Positions 31,595-59,763 of a DNA stretch of 64,000 bases are shown here, piece after piece. Position numbers and translations under genes: made by a program. Origin of the DNA: a virus; the IMG/VR virus record IMGVR_UViG_3300029092_000103; one strand, written 5' to 3'. Each line of letters begins with the position of its first letter. Position 1 is the stretch's first letter. The notes beneath the pieces were generated by a model that did not search any database, was not told the origin of the DNA, and saw nothing but the letters and a program-made list of their open reading frames with translations.

Positions 31595-32422
31595 ATGAAG
31601 AAGATCATTCCGCTGTTTGCATTTATTCTTGTTGTCTTTCTGGCCGTCTGCTCGTTTAGCATCATCCCTACCGGATACACTGGCGTGAAGACCAGTTTTG
31701 GTCAGATCCAGGAAACCACCATCCAGAGCGGCAAGCTCAACTTCTGCATTCCCTTTGTACAGAGCATCCACAAGGTCAACAACAAGCAGCAGGATAAGCA
31801 CATCGAGGCGCAGGTCTGGGGTGAAGCCTCCGACAAGACTCCGGTGTATGCCGCTGATGTCATTGTGACCTATCAGGTACTTCCTGAGAAGAGCGCATGG
31901 CTGTATGCGAATGTGTCCGACATCAAGAATCTGGTCGGTGATGAACTGGTGGCATCTGCCATCAAGTCTGCGATGGCAGAACTTGGTCCCAATGAAGTGA
32001 CAAACCGTACCAAGATTGAGCCTCTGGCTCAGCAGAAGCTGGCAGAGTCGCTGGAACAGAAATACGGCGAGGGCGTTGTGTTTGTGAACAAGGTCGTAAT
32101 CAACGATATGGATTTCGAGGATGCTTATAACGACGCAATCCAGCAGAAGTCCATTGCACAGCAGAACGCCGATAAGCAGAAGATTGAGAACGAAGCCGCC
32201 ATTGCCAAGGCAGAAGCTGACAAGCAGGTGGCAATCACCAATGCGGAGGCTGAAGCCCAGAAGACTTCCATTGCTGCAGAAGCGCAGGCCGAGGCAAACC
32301 GCAAGATTGCAGAGAGTCTGTCCTATACGCTGATCGAGTATCAGAAAGTTCAGAAGTGGGATGGCAAGCTGCCCACTGTGAGCGGTGGCAATGCTCTGGT
32401 GAGCATCGACCCGGCTGAGTAA
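31595..32422 (+). CDS. SPFH/band-7 (HflC/prohibitin-like) membrane protein; a moron inside the tail module
   Basis: N-terminal transmembrane segment (IIPLFAFILVVFLAV), an SPFH core, and an Ala/Glu/Gln-rich coiled-coil C-terminus. Flanked by duplicated terminator-like repeats at 31530-31566 and 32417-32456. Confidence 0.8.
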   Translation: MKKIIPLFAFILVVFLAVCSFSIIPTGYTGVKTSFGQIQETTIQSGKLNFCIPFVQSIHKVNNKQQDKHIEAQVWGEASDKTPVYAADVIVTYQVLPEKSAWLYANVSDIKNLVGDELVASAIKSAMAELGPNEVTNRTKIEPLAQQKLAESLEQKYGEGVVFVNKVVINDMDFEDAYNDAIQQKSIAQQNADKQKIENEAAIAKAEADKQVAITNAEAEAQKTSIAAEAQAEANRKIAESLSYTLIEYQKVQKWDGKLPTVSGGNALVSIDPAE

Positions 32423-32488
32423 GAAACACGATATACGGCAGAGCTTCGGCTCTGCCACTTTTACATGAAATTTTTGGAGGATACGATT

Positions 32489-32869
32489 ATGGCAGTTACG
32501 AAGAAAATCGAGATCGATGGCAAAGAAGTCACTTTCAAGGCCAGTGCCGCTGTGCCTCGCCTGTACCGCATCAAGTTCGGACGCGACATCTACAAAGACC
32601 TGCGCCAGCTGGAAAAGAGTGTGGGGGAGAACGACGAGGACAATTCCAACCTTGATCTGTTCAGTCTGGAGATGTTCGAGGATCTGGCATGGCTGATGGC
32701 CCGTCATGCAGACCCTGCGAATGTGCCGGACAGCCCGGAGGAGTTCCTTGACCAGTTCAACACCTTCTCCATCTACCAGATTCTGCCCCAGCTGATCGAA
32801 CTGTGGGGCCTGAATGTGCAGACCGAGGTGGAATCCCGAAAAAACCTCGCAAAAGTGAGCGGGAAATGA
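32489..32869 (+). CDS. Tail assembly chaperone (gpG-like)
   Basis: GGAGGA lies 7 nt before ATG 32489. Ends just after the slippery site. Confidence 0.6.
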   Translation: MAVTKKIEIDGKEVTFKASAAVPRLYRIKFGRDIYKDLRQLEKSVGENDEDNSNLDLFSLEMFEDLAWLMARHADPANVPDSPEEFLDQFNTFSIYQILPQLIELWGLNVQTEVESRKNLAKVSGK

Positions 32870-33030
32870 CCACCCCGCTCTTTCTGCTGCGCTGTGTGCA
32901 GCTCGGTATCAGCATCGCCGACCTCGACCTGCTGACCATCGGGTTGGTCAATGATATGTTCACGGAGCGACAGAATGACGATTATCCGTACAAAGAGCTG
33001 GCAAGTCAGTCGGACTTCGACCACTTCTAA
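32489..33030 (+). CDS. Tail assembly chaperone frameshift product (gpGT-like), made by a -1 programmed frameshift at A_AAA_AAC (32839-32845)
   Basis: The heptamer A AAA AAC sits in the G frame. The -1 frame continues open to 33030 as ...PKKPRKSEREMTTPLFLL... Confidence 0.55.
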
Positions 33031-33038
33031 AGAAAAAA

Positions 33039-33084
33039 CAGACGACCGTGCTTATATTGCAAACGAAATAAGCACAGTCGTCTG
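33039..33084 (+). terminator. 17-bp-stem hairpin terminator for the plus-strand tail genes
   Basis: CAGACGACCGTGCTTAT...ATAAGCACAGTCGTCTG with one mismatch. Confidence 0.6.
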
Positions 33085-33103
33085 ACAGCAGGGTATAAAA
33101 AAT

Positions 33104-33127
33104 CCCCCAGCCGTGCACAACTGGGGG
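33104..33127 (-). terminator. Terminator for the convergent minus-strand cassette
   Basis: CCCCCAG...CTGGGGG hairpin followed on the minus strand by TTTTTTAT. Confidence 0.6.
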
Positions 33128-33239
33128 AGAAAGAAGGTGGCCCGGAGGTCATCTTCCCGGTCTCAGACCTCGCAAGGTTACTGAAACCTGATCGCTAATG
33201 AATTATAGCTGATTGGGTGTAAATAGTCAACTAAGTATT

Positions 33240-33491
33240 TCATGCAGAAGCGGAATCGGTGGGTTTGCGTGTATCTTCAAAGACATTGCGAAGGTAATCA
33301 GGGCCTTCCATCCATAGGCCAGTAGAATAATCGAACAACTCCTTATAAGCAGGGGAAGTCGAAAACTCAAAGAATGCCTGATCAAAGGGGATGCCCGATT
33401 CGGCGCAGTAATCTTCGAGCATTGCCCGCATGACATTTACAGCACAAGACTCGCGCTGTTCGTCACTGACATTATAGGTGCTTGAAGTCAT
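33240..33491 (-). CDS. DUF3791-like small protein
   Basis: AAGGAG lies 8 nt before ATG on the minus strand. ...YKELFDYSTGLWMEGPDYL pattern. Confidence 0.5.
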   Translation of the reverse strand: MTSSTYNVSDEQRESCAVNVMRAMLEDYCAESGIPFDQAFFEFSTSPAYKELFDYSTGLWMEGPDYLRNVFEDTRKPTDSASA

Positions 33492-34044
33492 AGTTGTCAC
33501 TCCTTATAAATTCGAGAGATTGGATCGCTTTTTCGTTGCAGAAGCAGAACTGGTCTTCTAGGCGATTCGGCAGTAGCATTTTGATAGCAAAGCTATCGGC
33601 ATCTTCAGAGCCGGGTTCACCATAAGCGCGTGTGGTGTAAAGCTGTAAAGTGCGGGCAGTTTGGTCGTCGGCTATTTTTCCTCCGATGATGTCAAACTTG
33701 GCGTACTGTTCCCGGACATCTGGGAACAAGGTTCTTCTACGGTTTGAAGCAACAAAATGGAGCCAATTCCTATCAGCAGCATTGAATAGGTGAATGGCGA
33801 TATCGGGATTTAAATGGAGTTTGAAAACAGAAATGTAACCGGATGCTGTGCCAGAAGGCAGTTTCCCTTCGTTTACCTGTTTGTTTACAGACAGAGGAAC
33901 AAAACCTTGAGCCTGCTTGTAGGAGCTTGTGACGTAGAAACCGCGCCCGAAATCTTTGCCTTGTTTACATTTGCTAAGATCGATTTCGGACACCTGGATG
34001 AAACTGCCGTGATAGAGCAACATTCCGTTTGTTAATGTCAGCAT
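33472..34044 (-). CDS. DUF3990 domain protein
   Basis: LYHGSFIQVSEIDLSKCKQGKDFGRGFYVTSSYKQA is the DUF3990 N-terminal signature. Confidence 0.7.
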   Translation of the reverse strand: MLTLTNGMLLYHGSFIQVSEIDLSKCKQGKDFGRGFYVTSSYKQAQGFVPLSVNKQVNEGKLPSGTASGYISVFKLHLNPDIAIHLFNAADRNWLHFVASNRRRTLFPDVREQYAKFDIIGGKIADDQTARTLQLYTTRAYGEPGSEDADSFAIKMLLPNRLEDQFCFCNEKAIQSLEFIRSDNYDFKHL

Positions 34045-34262
34045 ACGGCAACACCTCGGCTTTTCAGCATTTCCTCGACATCATCCAAAGCGCACTCATA
34101 GCTGCTTAAATGGAGAAAGTCGTAACACCTGGCGATAAATCCAAACACATCATTATCCTGAAATATCTTCGCGCAGGCTTCAGGAGACTTTTTCCACTTG
34201 GATTGAGCCATACGGAAAACCCAGCACTGCATATCGGCAATATCAATTTGATGTTCACTCAT
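34038..34262 (-). CDS. DUF3791 domain protein (the usual partner of DUF3990)
   Basis: AAGGAGG lies 8 nt before ATG 34262 on the minus strand. ...FGFIARCYDFLHLSS... Confidence 0.55.
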   Translation of the reverse strand: MSEHQIDIADMQCWVFRMAQSKWKKSPEACAKIFQDNDVFGFIARCYDFLHLSSYECALDDVEEMLKSRGVAVC

Positions 34263-34479
34263 AGAGCATACCTCCTTTGAGTACAATTTTTCAATTTAAG
34301 TATAGCTCTTTTTTCGGCTTATAGCAACGAAAGATTTGTAAATTTCTAAGTTGCAAGCCCACTTCCCAAAAAAAGTAACTCACGAGTTAGTAACTTACGA
34401 GTATATTATTTTACCGCTTTAGCCTGTCTGCCTCGTGCAGATGGGCTTTTTTCATGCCCACGAGGAGGTGGTTACCCGC

Positions 34480-37400
34480 ATGGCATCCAGAATCCAGGGC
34501 ATCGCCGTTGAAATCGGCGGCGATACCACAAAGCTCTCCAAAGCACTGGAAGGTGTAAACAAATCAATAAAGGGGACGCAGTCCGGACTGAAGGATGTCA
34601 ACAAACTCCTGAAGCTGGACCCCTCGAATACTGAACTGGTCGTCCAGAAGCAGAAGATGCTCAAGGATGCCATTGAAGCCACCAAGGAAAAGCTGGCAAC
34701 CTTAAAGACCGCTGCACAGCAGGCCAATGAACAGCTTGCCAATGGTGAAATCACCCAGCAACAGTACGATGCTCTCCAGCGTGAGATTGCTGAGACAGAA
34801 CAGAATCTGAAATCCCTGCAGGAGCAGGCGGCGACCACTAACGCGACCCTTGCCAAAATCGATGAGGCCGGCGAAAAATTACAGAACCTTGGCTCTTCGG
34901 TCGAAAATGTGGGTAAGAAGTTCCTTCCTGTGACCGCAGCTGTGACCGGCCTCGGCACAGCGGCAGTGAAAACAGCGGCTGACTTCGATGCTGAGATGAG
35001 CAAGGTTTCTGCTATTTCCGGTGCGACCGGGGCTGACTTTGACAAACTCCGTGCGAAAGCCCGTGAGATGGGCGCAAAGACCAAATTCTCCGCAACAGAA
35101 GCCGCCTCCGCGATGGAGTATATGGCGATGGCCGGTTGGCGCACCGAAGATATGCTTTCTGGTATTGAGGGCATTATGAACCTCGCGGCCGCTTCCGGTG
35201 AAGACCTCGCCACGACCTCGGATATCGTCACGGACGCCCTTACCGCTTTCGGCCTGTCGGCTTCAGATTCCGGTCATTTTGCGGATATCCTTGCGGCAGC
35301 TTCTTCCAACGCGAACACCAACGTCAGCATGATGGGCGAGACGTTCAAGTACTGTGCGCCTATCGCCGGCGCGTTGGGATTCTCGGCAGAGGATACCGCA
35401 GAAGCCATCGGCCTCATGGCAAACAGCGGTATCAAGGCTTCGCAGGCTGGTACTTCTCTGCGTTCCATTATGAACAACCTTGCCGGTGATGTGACCTTTG
35501 TCGGCAAGAACATCGGTGAGGTCACGATTGCTACCAGCAATGCAGACGGCAGTATGAGAAGCCTGAATGACATTCTTGCAGACTGCCGTGTGGCTTTTGC
35601 AGGATTGTCTGAATCCGAAAAGGCAGCCAATGCGGAAGCTCTGGTCGGCAAGAATGCAATGTCCGGCTTCCTCGCTCTGATGAATGCCGGCGAGGGGGAT
35701 ATCAATAAACTCCGTGGTGCAATCGAGGGATGCGATGGCGCATCCGAACGCATGGCAGAAACCATGCAGGACAATTTAAGTGGTCAGCTCACCATTCTGA
35801 AATCTCAGTTGGAGGAGCTGGCCATTTCTTTTGCCGATATCCTGATGCCGACCATCCGCAAAATCGTATCGGCGGTGCAGCAGTTTGTTGATAAGCTGAA
35901 CAGCATGGACGACAGCACCAGAGAGGTGATTATCCGAGTCGCGCTGCTGGCAGCTGCGATTGGTCCGCTGCTCATTGTTCTGGGTAAGACCATATCAACG
36001 GTCGGCACAGCGATGCGGGGATTCAGTTCTCTCGCAAAGGGTGTCCGGCTGCTCATTACCCACGTGGGTGGTGCCAGCGGTGCATTCGGCAAACTGGGCG
36101 CAGTGCTGGGCGGCCTATCCGGGCCGGTTGTGGCGGTGGTCGCGGTCATCGGTACACTGGTAGCAGCATTTCTCGATTTGTGGAATACAAACGAGGAATT
36201 CCGTACAGCAATCACTGGCATCTGGAACGATATCGTATCCAAAGTGAAAGCCTTCTGCGACCAGTTGACGCAGCGGATCAATGCACTCGGCTTTGATTTT
36301 AAGGATATCACTCAGGTTCTGCAATCAATCTGGAACGGATTCTGTCAGTTGCTGGCCCCACTGTTCGAAGGCGCATTTCAGAATATCTCTACTATCCTCG
36401 GCGTCGTGCTTGATTCGATGGTCGGTCTGCTCGATGTTTTCTCTAACATTTTCTCCGGAAATTGGCGTGGAGCGTGGGAGTCGGCAAAGAGTATTTTCTC
36501 TGGAATCTGGCAGGGCATCCGCTCGATTCTCTCTGTTACCCTTACGACTCTGCGGAATACGCTGGATGTTTTCCTTGGATTCTTCGGTACAAGCTGGCAG
36601 TCTGTCTGGAGCGGCATCCAGCAGTTCTTTGTGTCGATTTGGAGTGGAATCAGCGGATTTTTCTCGGATACGGCTTCGTCCATTTATTCGGTGGCAATCT
36701 CTGTGTTTACGGGGATTTCCGGATTCTTCACTTCGATTTTGACCTCGATCCAGACGACCTTCCGCACGACATGGACGGCGATTTCGCAGTCGGTTTCGTC
36801 TGCACTGACCGTGATCCACGACACTGTGGTGCGTGTATGGATGGCAATCTCGACTGTAATCTCGTCTGTGATGACTTCCATCTGTGAGACAATCCTGCAG
36901 GTTTGGTCCGGAATCTACACCACGATCCAGCCTCTGCTGGAGGCATTCCAATACCTGTTCAAGACGATTTGGCAGGCCATTCAGATTTTGGTCGGTGCTG
37001 CACTGACGGAAATTCACTCGAAAATCGTTTCGATTTGGAATTCTATCGTTGCATTTGTGACACCCCTACTTTCTGGCCTACAGTCGGTTTTCTCGGCAGC
37101 ATGGACAGACATCCAGCTGGCGATCTCTACGGTGCTGACGGCAATCCGGACTTCGGTGACATCTATCTGGAATGCAATCGTATCGTTCCTCTCGCCGCTG
37201 CTGACCGGAATCCAGACTCGGATGACCTCCGCATGGATGGCAATCCAGAATGTGATTTCGACTACTCTCTCGACAATCCATTCGGTGGTGTCGTCTATTT
37301 GGATGGCTATTAGCAGTAAAATTTCGTCTGTGGTTTCGGGCATCCGGTCCGTGATTTCTTCCGGCTGGAACTTCATGAAATCCACAGTTACGAATCTCAG

Positions 37401-49029: not shown

Positions 49030-51420
49030 ATGAGTGCTGGTACGGATTTCCTTGCAAGTTTGCAGAAAAAGACTGTGAAAAGTACAGTCCAACAGAAACA
49101 GCAGAAGAGAGCGAATGCATCCGCTGTGGATGTCTCGGCTTTACTGGAAGCCGCTCTCAGGCAGAAGAAACCTACGGAAGCTGTGGCAGATGTTCGTCAA
49201 AGTGCGGATGTCGCCACAGCTTCTTTTTTACCACCGACTGACACGCATCAAGGCAAGTCTACTCAACAAAAGCCGAAAAGCGCGTCAGATAAAGCAGTAC
49301 TACAGAAGCAATCAACCTCAAAATCCAAAGACATCGTTGATGCCGGTATCACAGCCCTTATCCAGAAAGCTCTGGATGCCAAAAAGGTTATGGAGCAGCC
49401 GGATATTGCAGAAAGGCTGCAAAGTAGTATGGAGAGCGAGTTCACACAGCTTTTCGCTGCCGAGAATGAACCGCAGGAAAGCAAGTTTGTTTCGACTGCG
49501 ACATTCCGCACCACCAAAAAGAAGATTGGAAGCATCCGTGTGGCGGCTTATATCCGCGTGTCCACGGATATGAGCGACCAGGAGAACTCATACGAAACGC
49601 AGGAAAAGTATTTTAATCAGCTGATTCAAAGCAATCCGGAATGGAATGCAGTCGGTGTGTACTCCGATTACGGTATCTCCGGCACTTCCAAGGAAAAGAG
49701 AACTGGATTCCGCAGGCTGATGCGCCACTGTAAGGATGGCAAAATCGACCGCATTGTGTGCAAGTCCATTTCCCGATTTGCCCGAAATACGGCTGACTTT
49801 ATGACGGCACTGGATACCCTGCACGACTGCGGAGTGACGATTCTGTTCGAGAAAGAAAATCTGGATACGGCAGACCCGACCAGCGACTTCATCCTTACAA
49901 CGCTGGCCGCCATCGCACAGGAAGAAAGCCGCAGCATTTCCGGTAACATCCGACAGGGCAATAAGATGCGCTTTCCGAAAGGGGAAGTTCCCAACAAGAT
50001 TATGTACGGATACCGCTACAACGGGAAGATGGTTACTTCCGAGAGCGGATATGAGTATAAAGACATCGAGGTCGTGGAAGAAGAAGCCAAGGTCGTCCGG
50101 CGCATTTTCAACGAAGTCGTGGAAGGCAAAGCCTATACGGAAATCGCAAGGGGACTGAATCTGGATAAGATTCCGGCTCCGGAGTCAGATATGGCGAGGG
50201 CCAGAAAGCGGAATTCCAAGAAAGGACAGCTGAACAGTGATTTACAGGACGGCTGGACTGGAGGGAATATCACGAGAATCGTCCGTGCCGAGCGATACAT
50301 GGGAGCAGTTCTCATTCAGAAGGTGTTCACACCGGATTATCTGACCCATACGGTTCAGAAAAACAACGGTGAAGTTCCACAGTATTTTGTCCGGAACCAC
50401 CATCCGGCAATCATTGATGAGGATTTGTTTCAAAAAGCGCAGGAAGTCGTAAAGGCAAACAGTGAACTGTATAACAGGACAAGGTTCAAGAAGAAGCCGA
50501 GAGCATTTTCTCAGAGGCTCATCTGTGGGGAGTGTGGACGGTTCTACTCTGTGACAAATGGAAACGGAAGCAATCCCATTTGGAGATGCCCTACGAGCAG
50601 CCAGACGACTGGAAAGTGCATCTGCCATGCAGAGAAAGTATACGAGGAACAGATTGTTCGTGTATTCCGTAAGGCGATTCTGGAACGGTTCCGGCTGACC
50701 ATCAAGCCCATTCACGACAATGTGGCTGTGGCAGATATCATGAGCGGACGTTTCAAAGAGCAGTATGACAACTTCACACCGGAAGCGGATTCCTTTGTGA
50801 GCCAGATGCTTGCAAGACTGGAAAGCATTCAAAAGCTGGACTTCATGGAACGCGACCGTGCTTTTTATAAGAAGCAGATTGCCGCCGCCCACACCAGTGT
50901 GGAAAGCACCAATAAGAAGATTCGGCTTCTGAAAAGTCAGGTAGATGTGATGCATACTCGTCTGGAAGTCCTCGGAGATGAGATGATCAGTCCGGCTTCC
51001 ATTGAGGAAAAGAAAAAACTCATTGAGAAGCTGGAGCAGGATGTTCAAAAAGACACAGACACTGAGCAGAAGCTGACCGAACAGCTCGACTACATGGAAA
51101 ACTACTGGGAAGAGCTGGAGAGCGACTATGAACGCAGGGAAAAGGCAATCGAGTGGATGAAGAACCTCCCGGTGGGTCGGGATGGTACGGTGGCTTTCTT
51201 AAATGAAGTGACCGAAGAACACTGCAAGGCATTTATCCTTTCGATTACCATCTATTCACCGCTGAAGTTCACGGTTCACTGGTTTGATGATACCAAGACC
51301 GAGGTGCAGATGGATTCCAACATTGAAGATTACCGCAATACCGCAAGCTACTATGACGGGCATACGATGCGTGATGGCAGCCAGCGGAAAAAGTATGTAA
51401 GAAGAACCAGAAGAAAATAA
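49030..51420 (+). CDS. Large serine recombinase (integrase), with an N-terminal extension of about 155 aa
   Basis: Resolvase catalytic domain (RVAAYIRVSTDMSDQENSYETQ...ISGTS...SISRFARNT), then recombinase, Zn-ribbon (CGECGRF...WRC) and coiled-coil regions. Confidence 0.85.
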   Translation: MSAGTDFLASLQKKTVKSTVQQKQQKRANASAVDVSALLEAALRQKKPTEAVADVRQSADVATASFLPPTDTHQGKSTQQKPKSASDKAVLQKQSTSKSKDIVDAGITALIQKALDAKKVMEQPDIAERLQSSMESEFTQLFAAENEPQESKFVSTATFRTTKKKIGSIRVAAYIRVSTDMSDQENSYETQEKYFNQLIQSNPEWNAVGVYSDYGISGTSKEKRTGFRRLMRHCKDGKIDRIVCKSISRFARNTADFMTALDTLHDCGVTILFEKENLDTADPTSDFILTTLAAIAQEESRSISGNIRQGNKMRFPKGEVPNKIMYGYRYNGKMVTSESGYEYKDIEVVEEEAKVVRRIFNEVVEGKAYTEIARGLNLDKIPAPESDMARARKRNSKKGQLNSDLQDGWTGGNITRIVRAERYMGAVLIQKVFTPDYLTHTVQKNNGEVPQYFVRNHHPAIIDEDLFQKAQEVVKANSELYNRTRFKKKPRAFSQRLICGECGRFYSVTNGNGSNPIWRCPTSSQTTGKCICHAEKVYEEQIVRVFRKAILERFRLTIKPIHDNVAVADIMSGRFKEQYDNFTPEADSFVSQMLARLESIQKLDFMERDRAFYKKQIAAAHTSVESTNKKIRLLKSQVDVMHTRLEVLGDEMISPASIEEKKKLIEKLEQDVQKDTDTEQKLTEQLDYMENYWEELESDYERREKAIEWMKNLPVGRDGTVAFLNEVTEEHCKAFILSITIYSPLKFTVHWFDDTKTEVQMDSNIEDYRNTASYYDGHTMRDGSQRKKYVRRTRRK

Positions 51421-51455
51421 GAGCCAGTCATAAGGCTGGCAGAAAGGGGCAGATT

Positions 51456-53756
51456 ATGACAAGACAAAAAGTAGATGTGATTCCCGCCAGTGTACGTTCG
51501 GTACAGAACGGCGGTCAGCTCAAAAGCCAGACCAATATCCGAGTGGCAGCCTACTGCCGTGTCTCCACGGGAGATGAGAGCCAGCAGACTTCCTACACGA
51601 CCCAGAAAGCATTCTACAAAGACCTCATCACTCGGAAAACCGGCTGGATTTTTGCTGGCATCTATGCAGATGAAGCAAAGTCTGGTACGAACCGAGAGCA
51701 TCGTGAGGAATTTAACCGCATGATGAAGGACGCGATGGATGGCAAGCTGGACTACATTGTTACGAAGTCCATTTCCCGATTCGCACGAAATACCATCGAC
51801 TCCCTGACCTGTACCCGTGAGCTTCGACAGTTGAAGCCGCCCGTGGGTATCTACTTTGAAAAAGAAAATATCGACACGCTGGATGCCAAAGGCGAACTGA
51901 TTTTGACGATTCTTTCGGCTTTGGCACAGGATGAGAGCCGTTCCATTTCGGACAATATCCGCTGGAGCATCCAGAAGAAGTTTCAGGCTGGTGTTCCGCA
52001 CATCAATCTGAAGCGGATGCTGGGGTATGAGCTGGGGCCTAATAAGCAGTGGGTCATCGTGCCAGAGCAGGCAGAAATCATCCGGTACATTTTCGACCGC
52101 TATGTGAAAGGACAGACGGCGAATAAAATTGCACGGGAACTGAACCAGATGGAGAAGCTCACGGTCAACGGGAAGAAGTGGAGAGCAAGTTCCATTCTGA
52201 TCGTCCTGCGGAATGAAAAGTATGTGGGCGACATCGAGATGCAGAAGACCATCACCAAAGACTTCCTGACCCACCGTTCCAGCATCAACAAGGGCGAGGC
52301 ACCCCGTTACTATGTGAAAAACCATCATGTGGGCATCATCGACCGTGTAACTTGGGACAAGGTGCAGACCATGCTGTTCGAGAAGCCGAGGACGGACATG
52401 ACCAAAGGCCCCGGCAAGAAAAAGGTAAAGAGCATCAAAGGTTCTCCATTTGGAAACCTGCGCTGTGGTGCAATTTTGGAGAACGGACCGGATGCCGGAA
52501 AGCCCTGCGGTGAGGGATTCTTCCGTGTGACCTACACGGGAGTGGCAAACGGTTATACTGATGAGCGGAGCTTACAGGCGACCGGGGAGGATACCGGAGA
52601 GTATCTGGAAAAATACACCTATTCCTATCCAGTCTGGCGGTGTAAGAGAAAAGTTGGAGAGAGGGATGGTGAACCGCCGAAGAATGGTACACCCGACCAG
52701 AAAGCGTATTGCCGGAGCAAACTTGGACGCTTGTCGGATGAGGAACGCAAAGCCGCTGATGAGCGGTGTCCATCGGAAGTCTACCATGAATGTGCGCTGG
52801 AACAGAGCTTCATGGAACTGCTCTACAGCATGAAGCGTGATTATGAACAGCACGGAGACGCTTCCATGATCGTGACCATGTTCGATAACGCCTATGAGCA
52901 GGCTGTCCAACTGGCAAACAACAGCAGTATCTCGGTACAGAGGATGGCGACCGTAGAGAACCAGATTAAAGAGATGGAAGAACGCCTGCAGGATGCTATC
53001 AGCCATCAGGTGGCGGCTCTTCGGGAAGCTGCTCTGGAGCAGAGTGCGGAACTGAACGAAGCCCTTTCCAATGGTGAGATGACCATTGATGATATCGACA
53101 TGGACATCCGAAGCGGACTGACACCGGGTAGTATCGGAGTGAGCTTCTATGGGACGGAAACGGAGGAAGGCTCGGAAGCCCAGATTTATACGGAGCTTGT
53201 GAATGACCTGCAGGAACGCTTGCAAACACTCAGGCAGGAACGGCAGACTATTGAAGAAGAGCAGGGTGTTCTGGCCATCATGAAGAAGAACTTTGAATAC
53301 TTCCTCGCCTGCCTGAAAGAACTGCCGGATGCCAATGCAAGTGGGATGCCCCTGAAAGTCAACGGGCTGGATGTACAGGGAAGCCTGATGCGAGATGCCG
53401 AGGGAAAGCCAATTGATGGAAAGACCGCTGCCGTCCACAATGGAAAAATCAAGTTGACGCCTGAGCGGATTGCGGAAGCCCCCGATATGCTTCATTTTGA
53501 AAAAGGTATCTATTGTGCTTTCATTGAAAGTGGAGTATTGCAGGGAGATGTGGCGACCTACAAGACAAACTTCGGTGTGACACTGACTTCAAAGGGTAAC
53601 CGTAGAACACTCACCAGCTTCATGGGCTATAAGCGGAGTGACCTGAACGGCAATGTGGTCTACATTGATGCCCCTTACAAAGTGTACGGATTCAGCATTC
53701 AGTACCGCCGGTATCTGACAACCGCTGCAAAGCGTGAGAGGAAAGAAGCAGTATAA
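51456..53756 (+). CDS. Large serine recombinase (second copy)
   Basis: RVAAYCRVSTGDESQQTSYTTQ...KSGTN...SISRFARNT, recombinase domain, coiled-coil. Confidence 0.85.
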   Translation: MTRQKVDVIPASVRSVQNGGQLKSQTNIRVAAYCRVSTGDESQQTSYTTQKAFYKDLITRKTGWIFAGIYADEAKSGTNREHREEFNRMMKDAMDGKLDYIVTKSISRFARNTIDSLTCTRELRQLKPPVGIYFEKENIDTLDAKGELILTILSALAQDESRSISDNIRWSIQKKFQAGVPHINLKRMLGYELGPNKQWVIVPEQAEIIRYIFDRYVKGQTANKIARELNQMEKLTVNGKKWRASSILIVLRNEKYVGDIEMQKTITKDFLTHRSSINKGEAPRYYVKNHHVGIIDRVTWDKVQTMLFEKPRTDMTKGPGKKKVKSIKGSPFGNLRCGAILENGPDAGKPCGEGFFRVTYTGVANGYTDERSLQATGEDTGEYLEKYTYSYPVWRCKRKVGERDGEPPKNGTPDQKAYCRSKLGRLSDEERKAADERCPSEVYHECALEQSFMELLYSMKRDYEQHGDASMIVTMFDNAYEQAVQLANNSSISVQRMATVENQIKEMEERLQDAISHQVAALREAALEQSAELNEALSNGEMTIDDIDMDIRSGLTPGSIGVSFYGTETEEGSEAQIYTELVNDLQERLQTLRQERQTIEEEQGVLAIMKKNFEYFLACLKELPDANASGMPLKVNGLDVQGSLMRDAEGKPIDGKTAAVHNGKIKLTPERIAEAPDMLHFEKGIYCAFIESGVLQGDVATYKTNFGVTLTSKGNRRTLTSFMGYKRSDLNGNVVYIDAPYKVYGFSIQYRRYLTTAAKRERKEAV

Positions 53757-53922
53757 GGATGAGATATGACCCTGCTGGGTGTGGCTTTTGTGGCTGCATC
53801 TGGCAGGGCCTTTTTTGTTTGTGGGAGATTTTATTCTTTTTTACATGTGGGGATTGCTATGTGCAGAGATCTGTTATATGTTGTGGATGACGAGGAATAC
53901 ACATAGCAGGAGAGATGACGAT

Positions 53923-54321
53923 ATGAAAAAATTATCGTGGTTATCGGTAGAGGATTATGGAACAACACCATTGGAAGTGATAATCGTGAGTGCAATGAAA
54001 GGGTATCTGGGAGAAATGCCAGAGAGTAAAGCATTGAAAAAGATCGAGGAAGTCTTTGACCCAAAGGTCATCCGGCTGTTCGGTGACGATGGCGCACCAA
54101 TGCCCGTACAAAGCACTGTTGACGGTGCAAAATTCGCTGCATTCATCGACGAGGCAGTAGCTGATGTGGTGAAACGAATGGAATCGGACATGAGCGACAT
54201 CGGGCAGATTGCACTGGAGGCTTTGCGAGATATAGACGGGAAGGTGATCGTTGAAACGATGAGTCCTGAGTTTGTGAGCTTCCTAGGGGATGTGTATAGA
54301 AGTTTGAAATTTGACAAATAA
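53923..54321 (+). CDS. Hypothetical protein (132 aa)
   Basis: ATG 53923 follows GGAGAGA. The ORF track's upstream extension is hydrophobic and of low complexity. Confidence 0.4.
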   Translation: MKKLSWLSVEDYGTTPLEVIIVSAMKGYLGEMPESKALKKIEEVFDPKVIRLFGDDGAPMPVQSTVDGAKFAAFIDEAVADVVKRMESDMSDIGQIALEALRDIDGKVIVETMSPEFVSFLGDVYRSLKFDK

Positions 54322-54418
54322 AAACGGAAAACCCGTTGATATTTTCTGGCGATAGGGGTATAATAAGATTGCAAGAAAATAAAAACGATAAATCCGTTTT
54401 TAGAAGGGAGAATGATAC

Positions 54419-55570
54419 ATGAAAATACTCCGTATCACCGCACAGGGACTTCCACTGTTTAAAGAAAACCTGGATATCTGTTTTTACACACAGCAGCGCG
54501 TAAGTGAGGATGATAAGTGTAGTCTATATAATTTGATTGATAATTATTATCTTCACACTACCAATGCGTTTATTGGAATCAATGCGTCTGGTAAGACCTC
54601 TGTGTTAAAGGTTATCAATTTGGCTCTGAACATTGTAAAGAATGAGCCCATTAATCATGTAGAGGCAAAAACTATTCTTGGTGGAGCAAGAGAAGCTACG
54701 ATTTGCACTTATTTTTATGATAATCGTAAATATGTCTGCTGCCTAGAAACTGTAATTACGGCAAAAAAAGCAAAGGCAGGAGATTATGTGTATTCGATCC
54801 TGTCCGAAAGACTGTGGGAAAAATCAATTGTCAGTATCAAGTCGAAGAAGTATTTGACGGATTTCACCGGAATGGAGCCTGTGGCATCGCGTAATAGCGA
54901 TGAAGCATATCTTTCAGATGATGTCAGCTTTATCATTGCACATAATAAAAAAGCAAATGATACGGTGGAAGTGTTTAGCTTACTTTCTTACACGAATGTG
55001 AATGTGCTTCCCTTTACTGAGGATATTCCATTGGAAGTGATTGCTTTTCTGGACCCAACCATTGAAAAATTGTGCTTCGAGCAAACAGAGGGAAAGACAT
55101 TTATCCATTTGAAATTCCGAAATGAAGATGAAATTGTTTTAAACAATGCAGTGGACCTTGAGCAGTATCTGTCTTCCGGTACAATCAAAGGTATTATTAC
55201 ATTCTCAATGGTGAAGGAGGTACTTCAATCTGGTGGATACTTGCTGGTAGATGAAATTGAAAACCATTTTAATAAGGAAATTGTAACAACACTGATTCGT
55301 TTCTTTATGGATGGCCGACTTAACAAAAAAGGTGGAACACTGATTTTTACAACACATTATCCAGAGTTGTTGGATGAATATGACCGCAATGATGGAATTT
55401 GTATCGTAAGAAACCGTAATGGCATCACAGTAGAAAACCTGAGCTATATATTGAAACGTAATGATATTAAAAAAAGCGATGCATATCAGAGTGGATTTCT
55501 GGAAGGAACGACCCCTGCGTATGAGGCCTATATGCGCTTGAAGAAGAACCTGGCTGCTTCAATTCATTAA
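54419..55570 (+). CDS. AAA_21/ABC-like ATPase (AbiLi-like, OLD-family ATPase-like)
   Basis: Walker A GINASGKTSV. Walker B/D-loop LLVDEIENHFN. H-loop TTHYPELL. The sequence is AT-rich relative to the prophage. Confidence 0.75.
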   Translation: MKILRITAQGLPLFKENLDICFYTQQRVSEDDKCSLYNLIDNYYLHTTNAFIGINASGKTSVLKVINLALNIVKNEPINHVEAKTILGGAREATICTYFYDNRKYVCCLETVITAKKAKAGDYVYSILSERLWEKSIVSIKSKKYLTDFTGMEPVASRNSDEAYLSDDVSFIIAHNKKANDTVEVFSLLSYTNVNVLPFTEDIPLEVIAFLDPTIEKLCFEQTEGKTFIHLKFRNEDEIVLNNAVDLEQYLSSGTIKGIITFSMVKEVLQSGGYLLVDEIENHFNKEIVTTLIRFFMDGRLNKKGGTLIFTTHYPELLDEYDRNDGICIVRNRNGITVENLSYILKRNDIKKSDAYQSGFLEGTTPAYEAYMRLKKNLAASIH

Positions 55571-55582
55571 GGAGGCGGCAGA

Positions 55583-56104
55583 ATGGAATTGGCAAAATAT
55601 AAGGCGTGTATCTGCGAGGGTTCGGCGGAGGCTGCGATTATCGATATACTGGTCGATAATGACCTTTTGATCTTTACCTGAGAAGAAATGCTCAATGAAG
55701 AAGTTATCCGATGCAGGAACGCAAAGAAATTTGAGGAACGTTACTTACGTAAGGAATTTGCAGATCAGGTTTCTGTCATACGGATTCTAGATTCGCGCAG
55801 GGAAGAATTTCGACTCAGCAAGGCATACGAAAATAAGATTGATGTTATTAATGTCATTACAGCTCCCGAAATAGAAATGTTGATTATCCATAATGAGGGA
55901 GAGTATGAACATTTTAAGCGTTCTGGGAAGAAGCCGAGTGAGTTTTGTAAAGTGAATCTCCGTATGCATAATGTAAAGTCGTATGAATTCGTGAAAGACT
56001 ATTTTAGTGATCCACAAACACTGGTGGGGGCGATTAAAGAATATCGTAGAACCGCAAATATCCCAAATGGAGAATACTGCTTGTCTGACTTGCTAAAGCA
56101 ATGA
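55583..56104 (+). pseudogene. RloB/DUF4276-like (Toprim-like, AbiLii-like) gene interrupted by an in-frame TGA at 55679-55681
   Basis: N-terminal ...KACICEGSAEAAIID matches the RloB/DUF4276 CEGxxE signature. The 32-aa ORF (55583-55681) and the 138-aa ORF (55688-56104) are in the same frame, separated only by TGA. GGAGG lies 7 nt before ATG 55583. Confidence 0.55.
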
Positions 56105-56325
56105 GAAACGGCAGTCATGTACAAGGCCACAGGAGATATAAGAAAAGAAGCGCATAATTGAAAATAATTGGCCCACTGGCGCACTGTGTAGAATCCTACA
56201 TGGTACGTTGGTGGGTTTCTTTTTTTGCCTTACCCGCATGAACCACAGACAGCACCTCGGTGTGATCCGAAGTGCAGCTGTGGCTTATGCGGGCTTTTTT
56301 GTTATATGGTCAACGAGTTACAAAG

Positions 56326-56667
56326 TCAGATGCCTAACCCGTATAAAATCGCTTTCATCTCCTTTACCATCCGGGTGAGGATTTCCTGTTCAGTTGCATT
56401 GCAGTCCAAAAGCAGTCGGTGAATCTCCGTATCAGCTGTAGAGGTGGAATGCGTCAGGCTGTCTACGAGAAGGTCGTCTGCCGATACATTCAAGATATTT
56501 GCAATCTGCACGAGAGATTCCAAACTGGGCTTACTCTTTCCGAGTTCAATGTTGCTGATGTGCTTATAGCCAACCTCACACCTGAAAGCGAGTTCTTCCT
56601 GTGATAAATTTCCTTTGTTCCTAAAATTGGCGATGCGCTGTCCAAGCGCAGTATAGTCAATTGCCAT
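56326..56667 (-). CDS. XRE-family helix-turn-helix (HTH) transcriptional regulator (putative repressor)
   Basis: HTH LSQEELAFRCEVGYKHISNIELGKSKPSLESLVQIANILNV. AAGGAGG RBS before ATG 56667 on the minus strand. Confidence 0.75.
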   Translation of the reverse strand: MAIDYTALGQRIANFRNKGNLSQEELAFRCEVGYKHISNIELGKSKPSLESLVQIANILNVSADDLLVDSLTHSTSTADTEIHRLLLDCNATEQEILTRMVKEMKAILYGLGI

Positions 56668-56802
56668 ACAGTCCTCCTTATGGTTTACCCGCATAAGGCT
56701 GATATGATTATCTCGCAGGAGAAAATGTATGGCAACAGAGTGAGGACACTCTAAGACCGCAGAGCCACTTACCCCTATCAGTAGTGTGGTCTTAGCCTGT
56801 TA

Positions 56803-56852
56803 TTCCACCTGATAGGTGGAATTTTCGACTTCATTCCATCTGACAGGTGGAA
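56803..56852. promoter_or_regulatory. Two 19-bp palindromic operator-like sites (TTCCACCTGATAGGTGGAA and TTCCATCTGACAGGTGGAA) in the divergent region between the XRE gene and the AAA_25 gene
   Basis: Read from the sequence at 56803-56821 and 56834-56852. Confidence 0.55.
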
Positions 56853-56918
56853 GTCAAAGCACCGCACATATTCTATAATATAAATGTAGTAAAAGACTGC
56901 AATTGGAAAGGAAAGACA

Positions 56919-57896
56919 ATGGCAAGTAAAGAGCAAGTGGGGATTCTTACATTATATAGTGATGTACAGGCGACTTCTGTTCGCTGGCTGTGGTATCCGT
57001 TCATTGCAGTTGGAAAGATCACATTGCTTCAAGGCGACCCCGGTGACGGAAAGTCCACAATGATGATGAATCTGATTGCCGGTTTGTCCAATGGTGGGAG
57101 CCTCCCGGATGGTAAGCCGGTCGGGATGCCACAGAGGGTTATTTATCAGTGTTCGGAAGATGGCGTTTCGGATACCATCAAGCCTCGGCTGGAAAAGTGC
57201 GGAGCCGATTGCAGGAATGTGGCGTTCATAAATGAAGAAACCTACAGTGGGCTGACGCTGGATGATGAACGTATCCGGCAGGCTATTATAGAATTCCGGC
57301 CGAGGCTGGTAGTCATCGACCCGATACAGGCGTATCTCGGAAGTGACTCTGACCTCCAGATTGCAGGCAGAGCCAGAAAGTTGATGCAGCGTCTTGGAAT
57401 GTGGGCATCCGTATATGATTGTGCCATTGTGCTGATCGGTCACCTCAACAAGAAAGAGGGAACAAAAGGTCTGTATCGGAGTCTCGGCAGTATCGATGTG
57501 GTGGCGGCTGCCCGGAGTGTCCTGCAGGTGGAGAGAGATCCAGAGAACGCCGATATCCGCATCGTCCGGCAGATAAAGAACAGTCTGGCTCCATCCGATG
57601 GTGAAATCCGGTTTTCGATAACAGCAGAGCAGGGCTTCAAATGGCTGGAATGTGAAGTTGCACCAAATCCGGCAGCAGAGCCGGAAGCACCAAACTTTGA
57701 ATCGAAAGCCGAGAAAGCGGCCTATCTGATTAAGAAACTGCTTTCAGAGGGTGATATGAGATCCAGAGAAATCTACATAAGGCTGAGCGATGAAGGTATC
57801 AGCCGCAGGACAGCAGAAAACATAAAAAAGGAACTCGGCATCCGAAGTTACCGGAGGATGCGTCAGTGGTATTGGAGCATCCAGCCGGAAGATTGA
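56919..57896 (+). CDS. AAA_25 / RecA-DnaB-like P-loop ATPase (RepA-like)
   Basis: Walker A LLQGDPGDGKST, Walker B LVVIDPIQAY, and GHLNK. Confidence 0.7.
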   Translation: MASKEQVGILTLYSDVQATSVRWLWYPFIAVGKITLLQGDPGDGKSTMMMNLIAGLSNGGSLPDGKPVGMPQRVIYQCSEDGVSDTIKPRLEKCGADCRNVAFINEETYSGLTLDDERIRQAIIEFRPRLVVIDPIQAYLGSDSDLQIAGRARKLMQRLGMWASVYDCAIVLIGHLNKKEGTKGLYRSLGSIDVVAAARSVLQVERDPENADIRIVRQIKNSLAPSDGEIRFSITAEQGFKWLECEVAPNPAAEPEAPNFESKAEKAAYLIKKLLSEGDMRSREIYIRLSDEGISRRTAENIKKELGIRSYRRMRQWYWSIQPED

Positions 57897-57906
57897 GAGG
57901 AAACAA

Positions 57907-59763
57907 ATGACAAAAAGTGAACGGCAAGAGCGCAAACAAAAAATTAGAGAACGTTATAAAGGCACGGATACATCCAGAATTAAAGTAATTCCTGCGAAAT
58001 CTTCAGAGAACTTGGAAACAAGCAACACCATTCGTCGTGTTGCTGCTTATGTACGTGTTTCAACTGATAATGATGAACAGACTTCATCCTATGAGCTTCA
58101 GAAGAATTATTATACTAAGTATATCAAGGCGCAACCAGGTTGGGAGTTCGCTGGAATTTATGCTGACGAGGGCATCAGTGGTACTTCTCTTGAGCACCGA
58201 AAGGGAATGCAGAAGCTAATTGAAGATTGTAAAGCTGGGAAAATTGACCTTATACTTACAAAATCGATTTCTCGATTCGCTAGAAACATTGTAGATTGCC
58301 TTTCAATAGTTGGTATGTTGAAGGATCTTGAGCCACCCGTAGGTGTAAAGTTTGAAACAGATAATATTTCAACGTTAGACATCAATGGACGGATGCTCTT
58401 GTCCATTGTGGCTTCTTTGGCAGAGGAGGAATCTCATAATAAATCTCTTCTGATGAATTGGTCTCTTGAACAACGTTATAAAGACGGAATGTTTCTTATT
58501 CCAGAACTTTTGGGGTACGATCTGGATGAAAATGGTAACCTTGTGGTTAATCCAGAAGAAGCACAGACTGTAAAGGTGATTTATTATTTGTATTTGAACG
58601 GATTCTCGCTTACGGAAATTGCTGAACTGTTGACCGATTATAGAAGGAAAACAAAATTAGGTAATACAGAATGGAATCCAAGTTCTTTGGCTGCTGTGAT
58701 CGCCAATGAAAGACATTGTGGAGATCTTTTAGCAAGAAAAACTTACACACCCAATTATTTGACTCATAAATCGAAGAAAATCAAAAATAACGAACGTGCA
58801 CAATATTGGAATTTCGACCATCATGAGGCAATTGTATCCAGAGAGGTCTATAATGCAGCAAATCATCTGCGAGCATCCCGGAGCTATGCAAAGCGAAAAC
58901 GTCCTCTGCCAGTTTTGAGTGTGGTCGATGACGGCATTCTTCGTGGATATGTACCTTTCGACAAAGACTGGACAGGATTTTCAGCAGAGGAATATCGAGA
59001 GGCTTCTGAAAGTGTAATGCTGGAGAAAGAAACTGACACGGTAGAAGTCATGAATCGTTTGGATTTGACCGGCTATGAAGTAGTCCGTGCACAGTATTTC
59101 TCGACTTTGCGGAATCCGGCCATGACGATTTCAAATGGAAGGTTGCGGTTTAATACAGCTTGTCTGAAAAAATTTGAAAATGTTGAGTATGTAGAACTGC
59201 TTCTGAACTCGGTTGACCGCTGTGTTGCTATCCGCCCCTGCGAAAAGAGCAATCCGAATGCAATTCATTGGGGGCGATTGAAAGAGGGACGGTGGTGTGC
59301 CAGTACACTTGTTTGCCGTGGTCTAGCAAAAGCACTTTTTGACATCATGGAATGGGAAGATGGCTTAAAATACCGTTTTCGTGGACAGTTTGTGGAGCAG
59401 GGCGATAATAAGTTGATGCTCTTTGAACTGGACGAACCGGAAATGGTCAAAGTCGAAGAAATCGTTCTTCCGCCCAAGGGAGAAGATGCTGAAGGCGAAA
59501 CAGTTAAGCAGACGATTTACATTCTTCCGCCGGAATGGGCAGGAACCTTTGGACAACCAATCACAAGCATTGCGCAGATTAGCCTCTTACAACAGAAACA
59601 TTATGCCGGAAACTGGGATGTACTTAGACCAGCAGCAGAAATAGAAGAAATGAATACATTTACGGTAGAAAATTTAAATGCGTTGCTTCACGAAGCGGAA
59701 GAAATAATGGAAGGATGGACTGATACAGATGGAGGAGAACAAAACGAGTGTTCCGATGAATGA
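57907..59763 (+). CDS. Large serine recombinase (third copy, AT-richer)
   Basis: RRVAAYVRVSTDNDEQTSSYELQ...ISGTS...SISRFARNI, recombinase domain, and a distinctive C-terminal domain (RLRFNTACLKKF...VAIRPC). Confidence 0.85.
   Translation: MTKSERQERKQKIRERYKGTDTSRIKVIPAKSSENLETSNTIRRVAAYVRVSTDNDEQTSSYELQKNYYTKYIKAQPGWEFAGIYADEGISGTSLEHRKGMQKLIEDCKAGKIDLILTKSISRFARNIVDCLSIVGMLKDLEPPVGVKFETDNISTLDINGRMLLSIVASLAEEESHNKSLLMNWSLEQRYKDGMFLIPELLGYDLDENGNLVVNPEEAQTVKVIYYLYLNGFSLTEIAELLTDYRRKTKLGNTEWNPSSLAAVIANERHCGDLLARKTYTPNYLTHKSKKIKNNERAQYWNFDHHEAIVSREVYNAANHLRASRSYAKRKRPLPVLSVVDDGILRGYVPFDKDWTGFSAEEYREASESVMLEKETDTVEVMNRLDLTGYEVVRAQYFSTLRNPAMTISNGRLRFNTACLKKFENVEYVELLLNSVDRCVAIRPCEKSNPNAIHWGRLKEGRWCASTLVCRGLAKALFDIMEWEDGLKYRFRGQFVEQGDNKLMLFELDEPEMVKVEEIVLPPKGEDAEGETVKQTIYILPPEWAGTFGQPITSIAQISLLQQKHYAGNWDVLRPAAEIEEMNTFTVENLNALLHEAEEIMEGWTDTDGGEQNECSDE

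Follow-up and report, generated by a model that had tools for sequence, protein, structure and literature searches.

We analyzed a stretch of viral DNA 64,000 nucleotides long (IMG/VR virus record IMGVR_UViG_3300029092_000103; hereafter, the window) and focused our attention on a cassette of three minus-strand genes, here called orfA, orfB and orfC, located between a tail assembly chaperone gene and the tape-measure gene of a temperate phage. The middle gene, orfB, encodes a DUF3990 protein with a predicted ADP-ribosyltransferase (ART) fold, and each of its neighbors encodes a small partner protein. The cassette is an instance of PDC-M13, a catalogued, uncharacterized candidate system, and thus represents no new kind of element. 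With moderate confidence, we favor the reading that it is a lysogen-expressed toxin-antitoxin or abortive-infection-type moron, and not a component of the tail; enzymatic activity, toxicity, neutralization by the partners, expression in the lysogen and a defence phenotype are all features that we infer.

The surrounding phage is a temperate, Ca. Heliusvirales-like gut phage, from a lineage prevalent in the human gut. The window encodes PolA, a VapE-type primase, an SNF2 helicase, methylases, the genes from terminase to tail, an endolysin and large serine recombinases, almost all of them on the plus strand. A first-pass annotation of this DNA had described three minus-strand genes interrupting an otherwise plus-strand region between the tail chaperone and the tape-measure gene, and the coordinates of the open reading frames (ORFs) bear this out:

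34327-34299, minus strand: cassette promoter TTGCTA-17-TATACT, sigma70-like, found by a consensus scan; its -10 element ends ~36 nt upstream of the orfA ATG
34262-34038, minus strand: orfA, 74 amino acids, with an ATG after AGGAGG; a DUF3791 gene in the upstream, antitoxin-like position
34044-33472, minus strand: orfB, 190 amino acids; DUF3990, predicted ART fold, presumed effector or toxin
33491-33240, minus strand: orfC, 83 amino acids, with an ATG after AAGGAG; second small partner

Each of the three genes is preceded by a Shine-Dalgarno sequence. OrfA shares 7 nt (ATGCTGA) with orfB, and orfB shares 20 nt with orfC; independent gene calls of related loci again show overlaps of 7-13 nt and 17-20 nt. 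A comparison with PHROGs found no informative family for any of the three proteins.

An ART-fold protein and its small partners

OrfB matched DUF3990 (PF13151) with 114 bits against a cut-off of 32.2, covering model positions 1-152 of 152, and this family belongs to the ART clan of Pfam (PMC7955679). Its match to ART-PolyVal (PF18760) reached 17.9 bits, far under the threshold of 31.2. An AlphaFold2 model built from 44 homologues (predicted local distance difference test, pLDDT, 92.7; predicted template modelling score, pTM, 0.87) contains the split beta-sheet of the ART fold, and a Foldseek search of this model against viral models returned ART-PolyVal domains. The modelled fold is that of toxins using nicotinamide adenine dinucleotide (NAD), such as diphtheria toxin. 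The first-pass annotation had proposed to look for an ADP-ribosyltransferase or toxin-like fold in DUF3990, and both the model and the Foldseek search found it; when the DUF3990 profile was searched against the sequences of the Protein Data Bank, no true homologue emerged.

Conservation was evaluated over 109 distinct family members, reaching down to ~25% identity. Eleven residues are invariant in all 109 (H12, D31, F32, G33, G35, F36, Y37, W94, R102, A125 and Q165), a set that is consistent with an active enzyme. H12 lies in the strand formed by residues 9-14 of orfB and Y37 in that formed by residues 36-39, as do the histidine of strand 1 and the tyrosine of strand 2 in the H-Y-E clade of ART proteins. 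In the strand spanning residues 163-168, the one on which H-Y-E enzymes have their catalytic glutamate (strand 5), the first residue, E163, is glutamate in only 24 of the 109 sequences, D164 is aspartate or asparagine, and Q165 never changes. Because position 163 is variable and Q165 is invariant, we regard DUF3990 as an H-Y-Q variant, Q165 being the putative counterpart of the catalytic glutamate. Glutamine-based enzymes of the ART superfamily include the NAD+ glycohydrolase (NADase) toxins TNT and Tse6, and for this reason NADase activity is kept beside mono-ADP-ribosyltransferase activity as a likely chemistry.

The partners are small proteins. OrfA is a DUF3791 protein (PF12668; 41.8 bits against a cut-off of 25) that is modelled as a four-helix bundle (pLDDT 92.6) and is too small for a macrodomain or a hydrolase. 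It had been suggested that two DUF3791-like genes bracket the DUF3990 gene: Pfam supports this for orfA and does not for orfC, which has no Pfam match at E <= 0.01 and does not reach the DUF3791 gathering threshold. In addition, orfC forms a family of its own, and no Pfam domain was found among its 72 close homologues. When broad, mutually exclusive profiles of orfC and DUF3791 were compared with hhalign, a colinear alignment of 57 columns was obtained (72% probability, E = 3.4e-5), with 1.1% in the reversed control; an earlier, less clean comparison had given 86%, and narrow profiles of orfA and orfC gave a negative result (0.2%). Merging of the two families by iterated hidden Markov model (HMM) searches was set aside as possible profile drift. 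Overall, orfC is probably a remote relative of DUF3791, by the broad profile comparison. Among two-gene variants located away from contig edges, gene A is kept in seven loci and gene C in two.

A different rearrangement was observed in P0186, present on three contigs, in which orfA residues 1-44 are fused in frame to orfC residues ~32-83 and the DUF3990 gene is deleted. Judging by its gene content, P0186 is an effector-less allele of the module.

Promoter, cassette limits and the variable cargo slot

The cassette promoter is shared by copies of the cassette whose flanks are unrelated: one in a related phage (L005), one in a chromosomal polysaccharide locus (L160), one in a region resembling an integrative and conjugative element (ICE; L162), and L013. 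In these copies the -10 element is invariant and the -35 element is either TTGCTA or TTGATA. Moreover, a sigma70 match of at least 10/12 was found in 28 of the 96 distinct upstream regions of the family, against 4/96 in each of the coding and shuffled controls. Because it is kept where the flanks are unrelated, and because such matches exceed those in the controls, this predicted promoter is not a chance match.

The features that flank the cassette are the following:

32465-32869, plus strand: tail assembly chaperone gene, 134 amino acids (phrog_709, 1.3e-39)
32866-33030, plus strand: chaperone T gene, 54 amino acids (phrog_3033, 2.1e-23), with an ATGA overlap at 32866-32869
33039-33084, minus strand: hairpin 1, predicted distal terminator, with a 17-bp stem and a T-run at 33038-33033, directly adjoining the chaperone T stop codon
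33103-33128, minus strand: hairpin 2, with a T-run at 33097-33102; terminator of a small RNA (sRNA)-like backbone element, predicted also to end the cassette transcript
33230-33097, minus strand: sRNA-like backbone element, ~130 nt, comprising a promoter, a structured transcript of ~100 nt and the terminator hairpin 33128-33103 with six U residues
34375-34402: tandem direct repeat GTAACTCACGAGT / GTAACTTACGAGT, at the tape-measure-proximal edge of the exchangeable cargo, ~50 nt upstream of the -35 element
34421-34447, plus strand: terminator-like hairpin with a run of six T residues, directly before the ribosome-binding site (RBS) of the tape-measure gene; phage backbone
34480-39471, plus strand: tape-measure gene, 1,663 amino acids, with the likely start ATG at 34480 and the RBS GAGGAGG; its homologues are annotated as tail length tape measure protein

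Close relatives of the cassette, with DUF3990 proteins 94-95% identical, match the window as far as the stop codon of orfC and differ from it beyond; there they carry a fourth gene, encoding a DUF3791 paralogue of 112 amino acids, where the window has the sRNA-like element. On the tape-measure side, homology between the window and a phage with a ParE-like cargo (L170) ends at ~34402. As homology breaks at these two points, the limits of the exchangeable cargo are put at 33240-34402, ~1.16 kb, and we assign hairpin 1, the sRNA-like element and the hairpin at 34421-34447 to the phage backbone. The repeat GTAACTCACGAGT / GTAACTTACGAGT is present as one copy at the edge of homology in the chromosomal locus L160 and as both copies in L005, and may be an operator.

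The chaperone pair is syntenic with the genes found directly before the tape-measure gene in the NatCom phages, and the content of this junction varies from phage to phage. It is empty in NatCom_42228, with a gap of 15 nt, and holds an antisense HNH_2 protein gene (325 amino acids) in NatCom_23091, a GNAT acetyltransferase gene in NatCom_22372, and genes for an HTH_3 protein and an unknown protein in NatCom_10489. Eleven IMG/VR sister contigs carry an antisense pair encoding a Phd/YefM-like protein of 110 amino acids and a ParE-like protein of 111, flanked by the same backbone elements. Together with this pair and with the DUF3990 cassettes of three or four genes, at least seven states of the junction were observed. 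A slot that is variable, or even empty, in sister phages implies that the cassette is dispensable for tail assembly. The possibility that it is a tail component was rejected, as sister phages that share these tail genes lack it and as it also occurs in non-phage contexts; its earlier designation as a moron outside the tail machinery is thus upheld by both the variable slot and the mobility of the cassette.

The fourth gene of the relatives (L005:10815-11153) is a chimera. Its N-terminal DUF3791 domain is paralogous to orfA, and its C-terminal tail, SPFISEEELFRRLGITEDDLVGFDDVEIE, recurs in nearly identical form at the end of the Phd-like antitoxin of the phages with ParE-like cargo (L170:5156-5488), evidence that cargo cassettes have recombined at this slot.

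We then turned to the two hairpins downstream of orfC, which had been described as facing terminators separating the cassette from the plus-strand genes. Both hairpins exist at essentially the coordinates given (33039-33084 and 33103-33128), and their proposed geometry proved to be wrong: the T/U runs of both lie on the minus strand (33033-33038 and 33097-33102), and because of this we read them as tandem minus-strand terminators. Hairpin 1 folds far more stably than shuffled sequence on the minus strand (z = -6.75). The minus-strand RNA forms 17 continuous pairs, with a G-U pair completing the stem, the same position being a C-A mismatch on the plus strand, and the outer stem shows compensatory changes in L005 and L165-L176. 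No canonical plus-strand terminator was found 3' of the chaperone genes. A 41-residue ORF running through both terminators (33152-33027) was rejected, as it has no RBS and spans the hairpins.

Hairpin 2 belongs to the sRNA-like element, whose promoter TTGACT-17-TATAAT (33230-33202) matches the consensus at 11/12 positions. The predicted RNA has a minimum free energy of -43.4 kcal/mol (z = -3.0), and its transcript contains a C/U-rich stretch resembling an anti-Shine-Dalgarno sequence, CCACCUUCUUUCUCCCCC. Eleven other IMG/VR phage contigs have the element in the same position, with an identity of at least 95% and downstream of different antisense cargo; on these grounds, 33097-33230 is counted with the backbone and not with the cassette, and we consider it an sRNA candidate. 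No Rfam family was found in 32800-34600. The claim that the cassette has its own promoter and terminator therefore stands in its first half, as the promoter travels with the cassette, and falls in its second, as hairpin 2 is an element of the phage backbone.

At the other end, the hairpin at 34421-34447 is kept, with compensatory changes, in L005 and L170, and an alternative pairing in the tape-measure leader (CCUCGUG...CACGAGG) would sequester the RBS. This hairpin may serve as an attenuator, or in translational control of tape-measure expression after an antisense cargo.

Two further observations concern accessory genes elsewhere in the window. A gene for an SPFH/Band7 lipoprotein-like protein (phrog_200; 31595-32422, plus strand), with its own terminator at 32437-32456, lies between the major tail protein gene and the chaperone gene. 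The NatCom phages L001-L004 lack it and L005 and L170-type relatives have it, and because of this patchy presence it is considered a second moron in the tail operon. The region 49030-59763, downstream of the endolysin gene, contains genes for two or more large serine recombinases (at 49030-51420 and at 57907-59763) together with one for an AAA_21 protein, an AbiEii-like ATPase (54419-55570); it may represent a second region of accessory or defence cargo near the integration module.

Distribution and relation to known systems

The first-pass annotation had suggested a defence-system search. In this regard, the PADLOC-DB v2 HMM library names all three genes PDC-M13: orfA matches PDC-M13A (1.6e-8), orfB PDC-M13B (1.1e-33) and orfC PDC-M13C (1.9e-7). 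The assignment rests on these HMM matches and on the adjacency of the genes, not on PADLOC's system-level rules. Both the catalogued system and the cassette combine one DUF3990 protein with two small partners; the copy in the window differs in being located in a phage tail operon and not within a BREX, DISARM or restriction-modification locus. PDC-M13 is among the most frequent matches in rumen genomes, with 3,324 loci (PMC13356809). DUF3990 is also known as the C-terminal toxin domain of type VI secretion system Rhs effectors, namely Serratia Rhs5 and Enterobacter RhsA, with a presumed immunity gene following it (PMC4524185, PMC10763514). The same Pfam domain thus occupies a position reserved for toxins, although those proteins are uncharacterized polymorphic toxins secreted by Proteobacteria.

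Relatives of the module were found in at least 557 genomic stretches in a scan of one genome per species, and in 66 viral loci in a scan of IMG/VR. Moreover, a profile search of 1.84 billion representatives of clusters at 50% identity returned 3,573 relatives. The best 150 of these 3,573 are stand-alone proteins of up to ~300 amino acids, many of them fragments, and include no natural DUF3791-DUF3990 fusion; the longer ones lack a DUF3791 domain, one being a TrbL fusion fragment. The order small A, DUF3990, small C is kept in ~126 of 152 loci, some of which have a fourth gene, and spans six phyla. Hosts include Firmicutes, Negativicutes, Spirochaetes, Fibrobacter, Bacteroidota, Eggerthellaceae, Planctomycetes and Chloroflexi.

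The contexts of the triad are equally varied. In one ICE-like region it adjoins SIR2_2, AAA ATPase and HNH genes (L161:10122-14778), and elsewhere it adjoins genes for an RtcB RNA ligase, an unknown protein of 106 amino acids and a relaxase (L162:7259-8707); another copy resides on a MobA/MobL element. In other phage lineages, the triad lies opposite in strand to its structural neighbors in all three loci checked (L122, L126 and L145). Together with the plasmid copies described below, these findings agree with the earlier proposal that the DUF3990/DUF3791 pair occurs on other mobile elements, which we now extend over plasmids, ICE-like regions and several phage lineages.

The same distribution raises the possibility that the cassette is a pure addiction module, which would stabilize its carrier replicon (prophage, plasmid or ICE) by post-segregational killing and have no role against other phages. 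Single islets are indeed scattered among housekeeping genes: a lone one in the Arabiibacter chromosome has UDG and CorA as neighbors, another lies between hydrolase and peptidoglycan-binding genes, and a third lies within a capsule locus. The triad is carried by 85 plasmids, and in the Bacteroides fragilis plasmid pBF9343 it adjoins a zeta-toxin module (L177:4005-5118). Furthermore, a Phd/ParE-like pair is swapped at the same phage site, and few defence genes are found among the neighbors of chromosomal copies. On the other hand, PADLOC drew its PDC candidates from within BREX, DISARM and type I restriction-modification loci, and one copy of the triad adjoins the SIR2/AAA/HNH genes mentioned above. 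We consider a role in addiction alone unlikely. As many toxin-antitoxin modules do both jobs, this explanation overlaps with a toxin-antitoxin or abortive-infection role more than it excludes it.

As to known toxin-antitoxin systems, the cassette resembles type II modules in its small, adjacent, co-directional genes, its overlapping frames and its own conserved promoter. ParST, MbcTA and Xre-RES pair RES-domain toxins of the ART fold with protein antitoxins in two-gene systems, whereas the module in the window has three genes; orfB has no RES-domain match and no R-E-S motif, its invariant residues being H-Y-Q, and its partners are four-helix proteins of the DUF3791 type instead of the Xre or COG5642 antitoxins of RES systems. 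DarTG is likewise a toxin-antitoxin system with an ART-fold toxin carried on mobile elements, and is active in defence; the DarT (DUF4433) toxin and macrodomain antitoxin that define DarTG are both absent from the module in the window.

The closest viral structural matches of orfB, the ART-PolyVal domains of phage polyvalent and ejection proteins, bring forward another explanation, in which the ART protein would be an offensive or counter-defence enzyme of the phage that modifies host RNA polymerase, translation factors or a defence protein, with the small proteins as chaperones or specificity adaptors. T4 Alt, ModA and ModB, as well as ART-PolyVal domains, are thought to modify host targets for the benefit of the phage, and the module is found in several phage lineages. 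However, the ART-PolyVal domains (PF18760) of polyvalent proteins from phages and conjugative elements, and that of the cyanophage A4 ejection protein (9k3a_B), sit within very large injected proteins, whereas orfB is a free-standing protein of 190 amino acids with dedicated small partners, and not a domain of a virion protein. Most copies have no phage genes around them, being located in bacterial chromosomes, plasmids or ICE-like regions, the cassette runs antisense to the late operon, and its host-type promoter is kept in non-phage copies. We therefore regard an offensive role as very improbable.

Proposed mechanism and implications

Based on these results, the toxin-antitoxin or abortive-infection reading is preferred because the module is a fixed, overlapping operon with a host-type promoter, an effector with the fold of a toxin and small, non-enzymatic partners. 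It is further favored by the scattered mobile islets, the use of DUF3990 as a toxin by Rhs proteins, the exchange with a Phd/ParE-like pair, and the effector-less allele P0186. The first-pass annotation had put forward a toxin-antitoxin or defence-type module, and this is supported in silico by the swapping at the slot, the mobility of the unit with its promoter, the ART fold and the PDC-M13 matches.

In the proposed mechanism, host RNA polymerase would read the three translationally coupled genes from the sigma70-type promoter of the cassette; as the cassette runs antisense to the late operon, this expression would occur in the lysogen. The DUF3990 protein, of the ART fold, would use NAD+ in an H-Y-Q active site, acting as a mono-ADP-ribosyltransferase or as an NAD+ glycohydrolase, and would be kept inactive by the direct binding of one or both four-helix partners. 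OrfA would serve as the constant partner, and orfC as an accessory subunit or a sensor. If the partners were lost or displaced, for example when another phage infects or when the prophage is lost, the enzyme would be freed and the cell arrested or killed, and the outcome would be an abortive-infection-type protection of the lysogen population, prophage addiction, or both.

Several points weigh against this reading. DUF3990 lacks the canonical catalytic glutamate of the H-Y-E clade, which leaves transferase activity uncertain; the protein could instead be an NADase or a binder, or have another function. The orfA (DUF3791) model gave only generic helical matches, and no similarity to known antitoxins, immunity proteins or DNA-binding folds was found. 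To get to the tape-measure gene, late plus-strand transcription has to pass through the cassette, which may affect the module. The Phd/ParE-like pair found at the same slot has Pfam E-values of 5.7e-5 and 2.1e-4, which are below the gathering thresholds. Of the 148 nearest neighbors, surveyed in 40 bacterial genomes, most are housekeeping genes and a few are defence-like; this survey had no control set and, for this reason, gives no evidence either way on defence islands. Moreover, the PDC catalogue comprises 145 untested candidates that were picked by their embedding in BREX, DISARM and type I restriction-modification loci (Payne et al., bioRxiv 10.1101/2024.01.29.577857), and, within the literature that could be searched, no functional study of DUF3990, DUF3791 or PDC-M13 was found.

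It could also be argued that the H-Y-Q variant lacks transferase activity and that the genes form a non-toxic NAD-related or regulatory set, with an NAD or ADP-ribose binder or a Tpt1-like processing of nucleic-acid ends serving a harmless accessory function in metabolism or repair, an explanation to which we give little credence: the eleven invariant residues, with polar D31, R102 and Q165 among them, favor catalysis, TNT and Tse6 are glutamine-based NADase toxins, the same domain forms the toxin tip of Rhs proteins, and both the operon architecture and the mobility are those of toxin-antitoxin modules.

A more far-reaching version of the toxin-antitoxin or abortive-infection reading can be formulated, which we put forward tentatively and consider rather doubtful as a whole. 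According to it, DUF3990 proteins would be a new H-Y-Q class of NAD+-consuming ART effectors, governed by two paralogous four-helix controllers of the DUF3791 type, one an inhibitor and the other a sensor of the trigger. The resulting tripartite abortive-infection system would be among the most abundant unstudied defence modules of the gut and rumen, and would be swapped with toxin-antitoxin pairs at an sRNA-flanked slot of the tail operon.

The DUF3990/DUF3791 module is very common and its function is uncharacterized, and the window offers a clean natural example of it, with defined boundaries, promoter and terminators; sister phages with the Phd/ParE-like pair, or with an empty site, provide ready comparisons. 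What is added here is the H-Y-Q signature, the limits of the cassette, the promoter that travels with it, the corrected geometry of the terminators, the comparison of cargo at the slot and the conserved sRNA-like element. Should the proposed function not hold, this would be one more accessory cassette. If DUF3990 is indeed an H-Y-Q toxin or NADase that two small partners restrain, the module would represent a new family of ART-type effectors for bacterial immunity, and would shed light on host protection or addiction by gut prophages.

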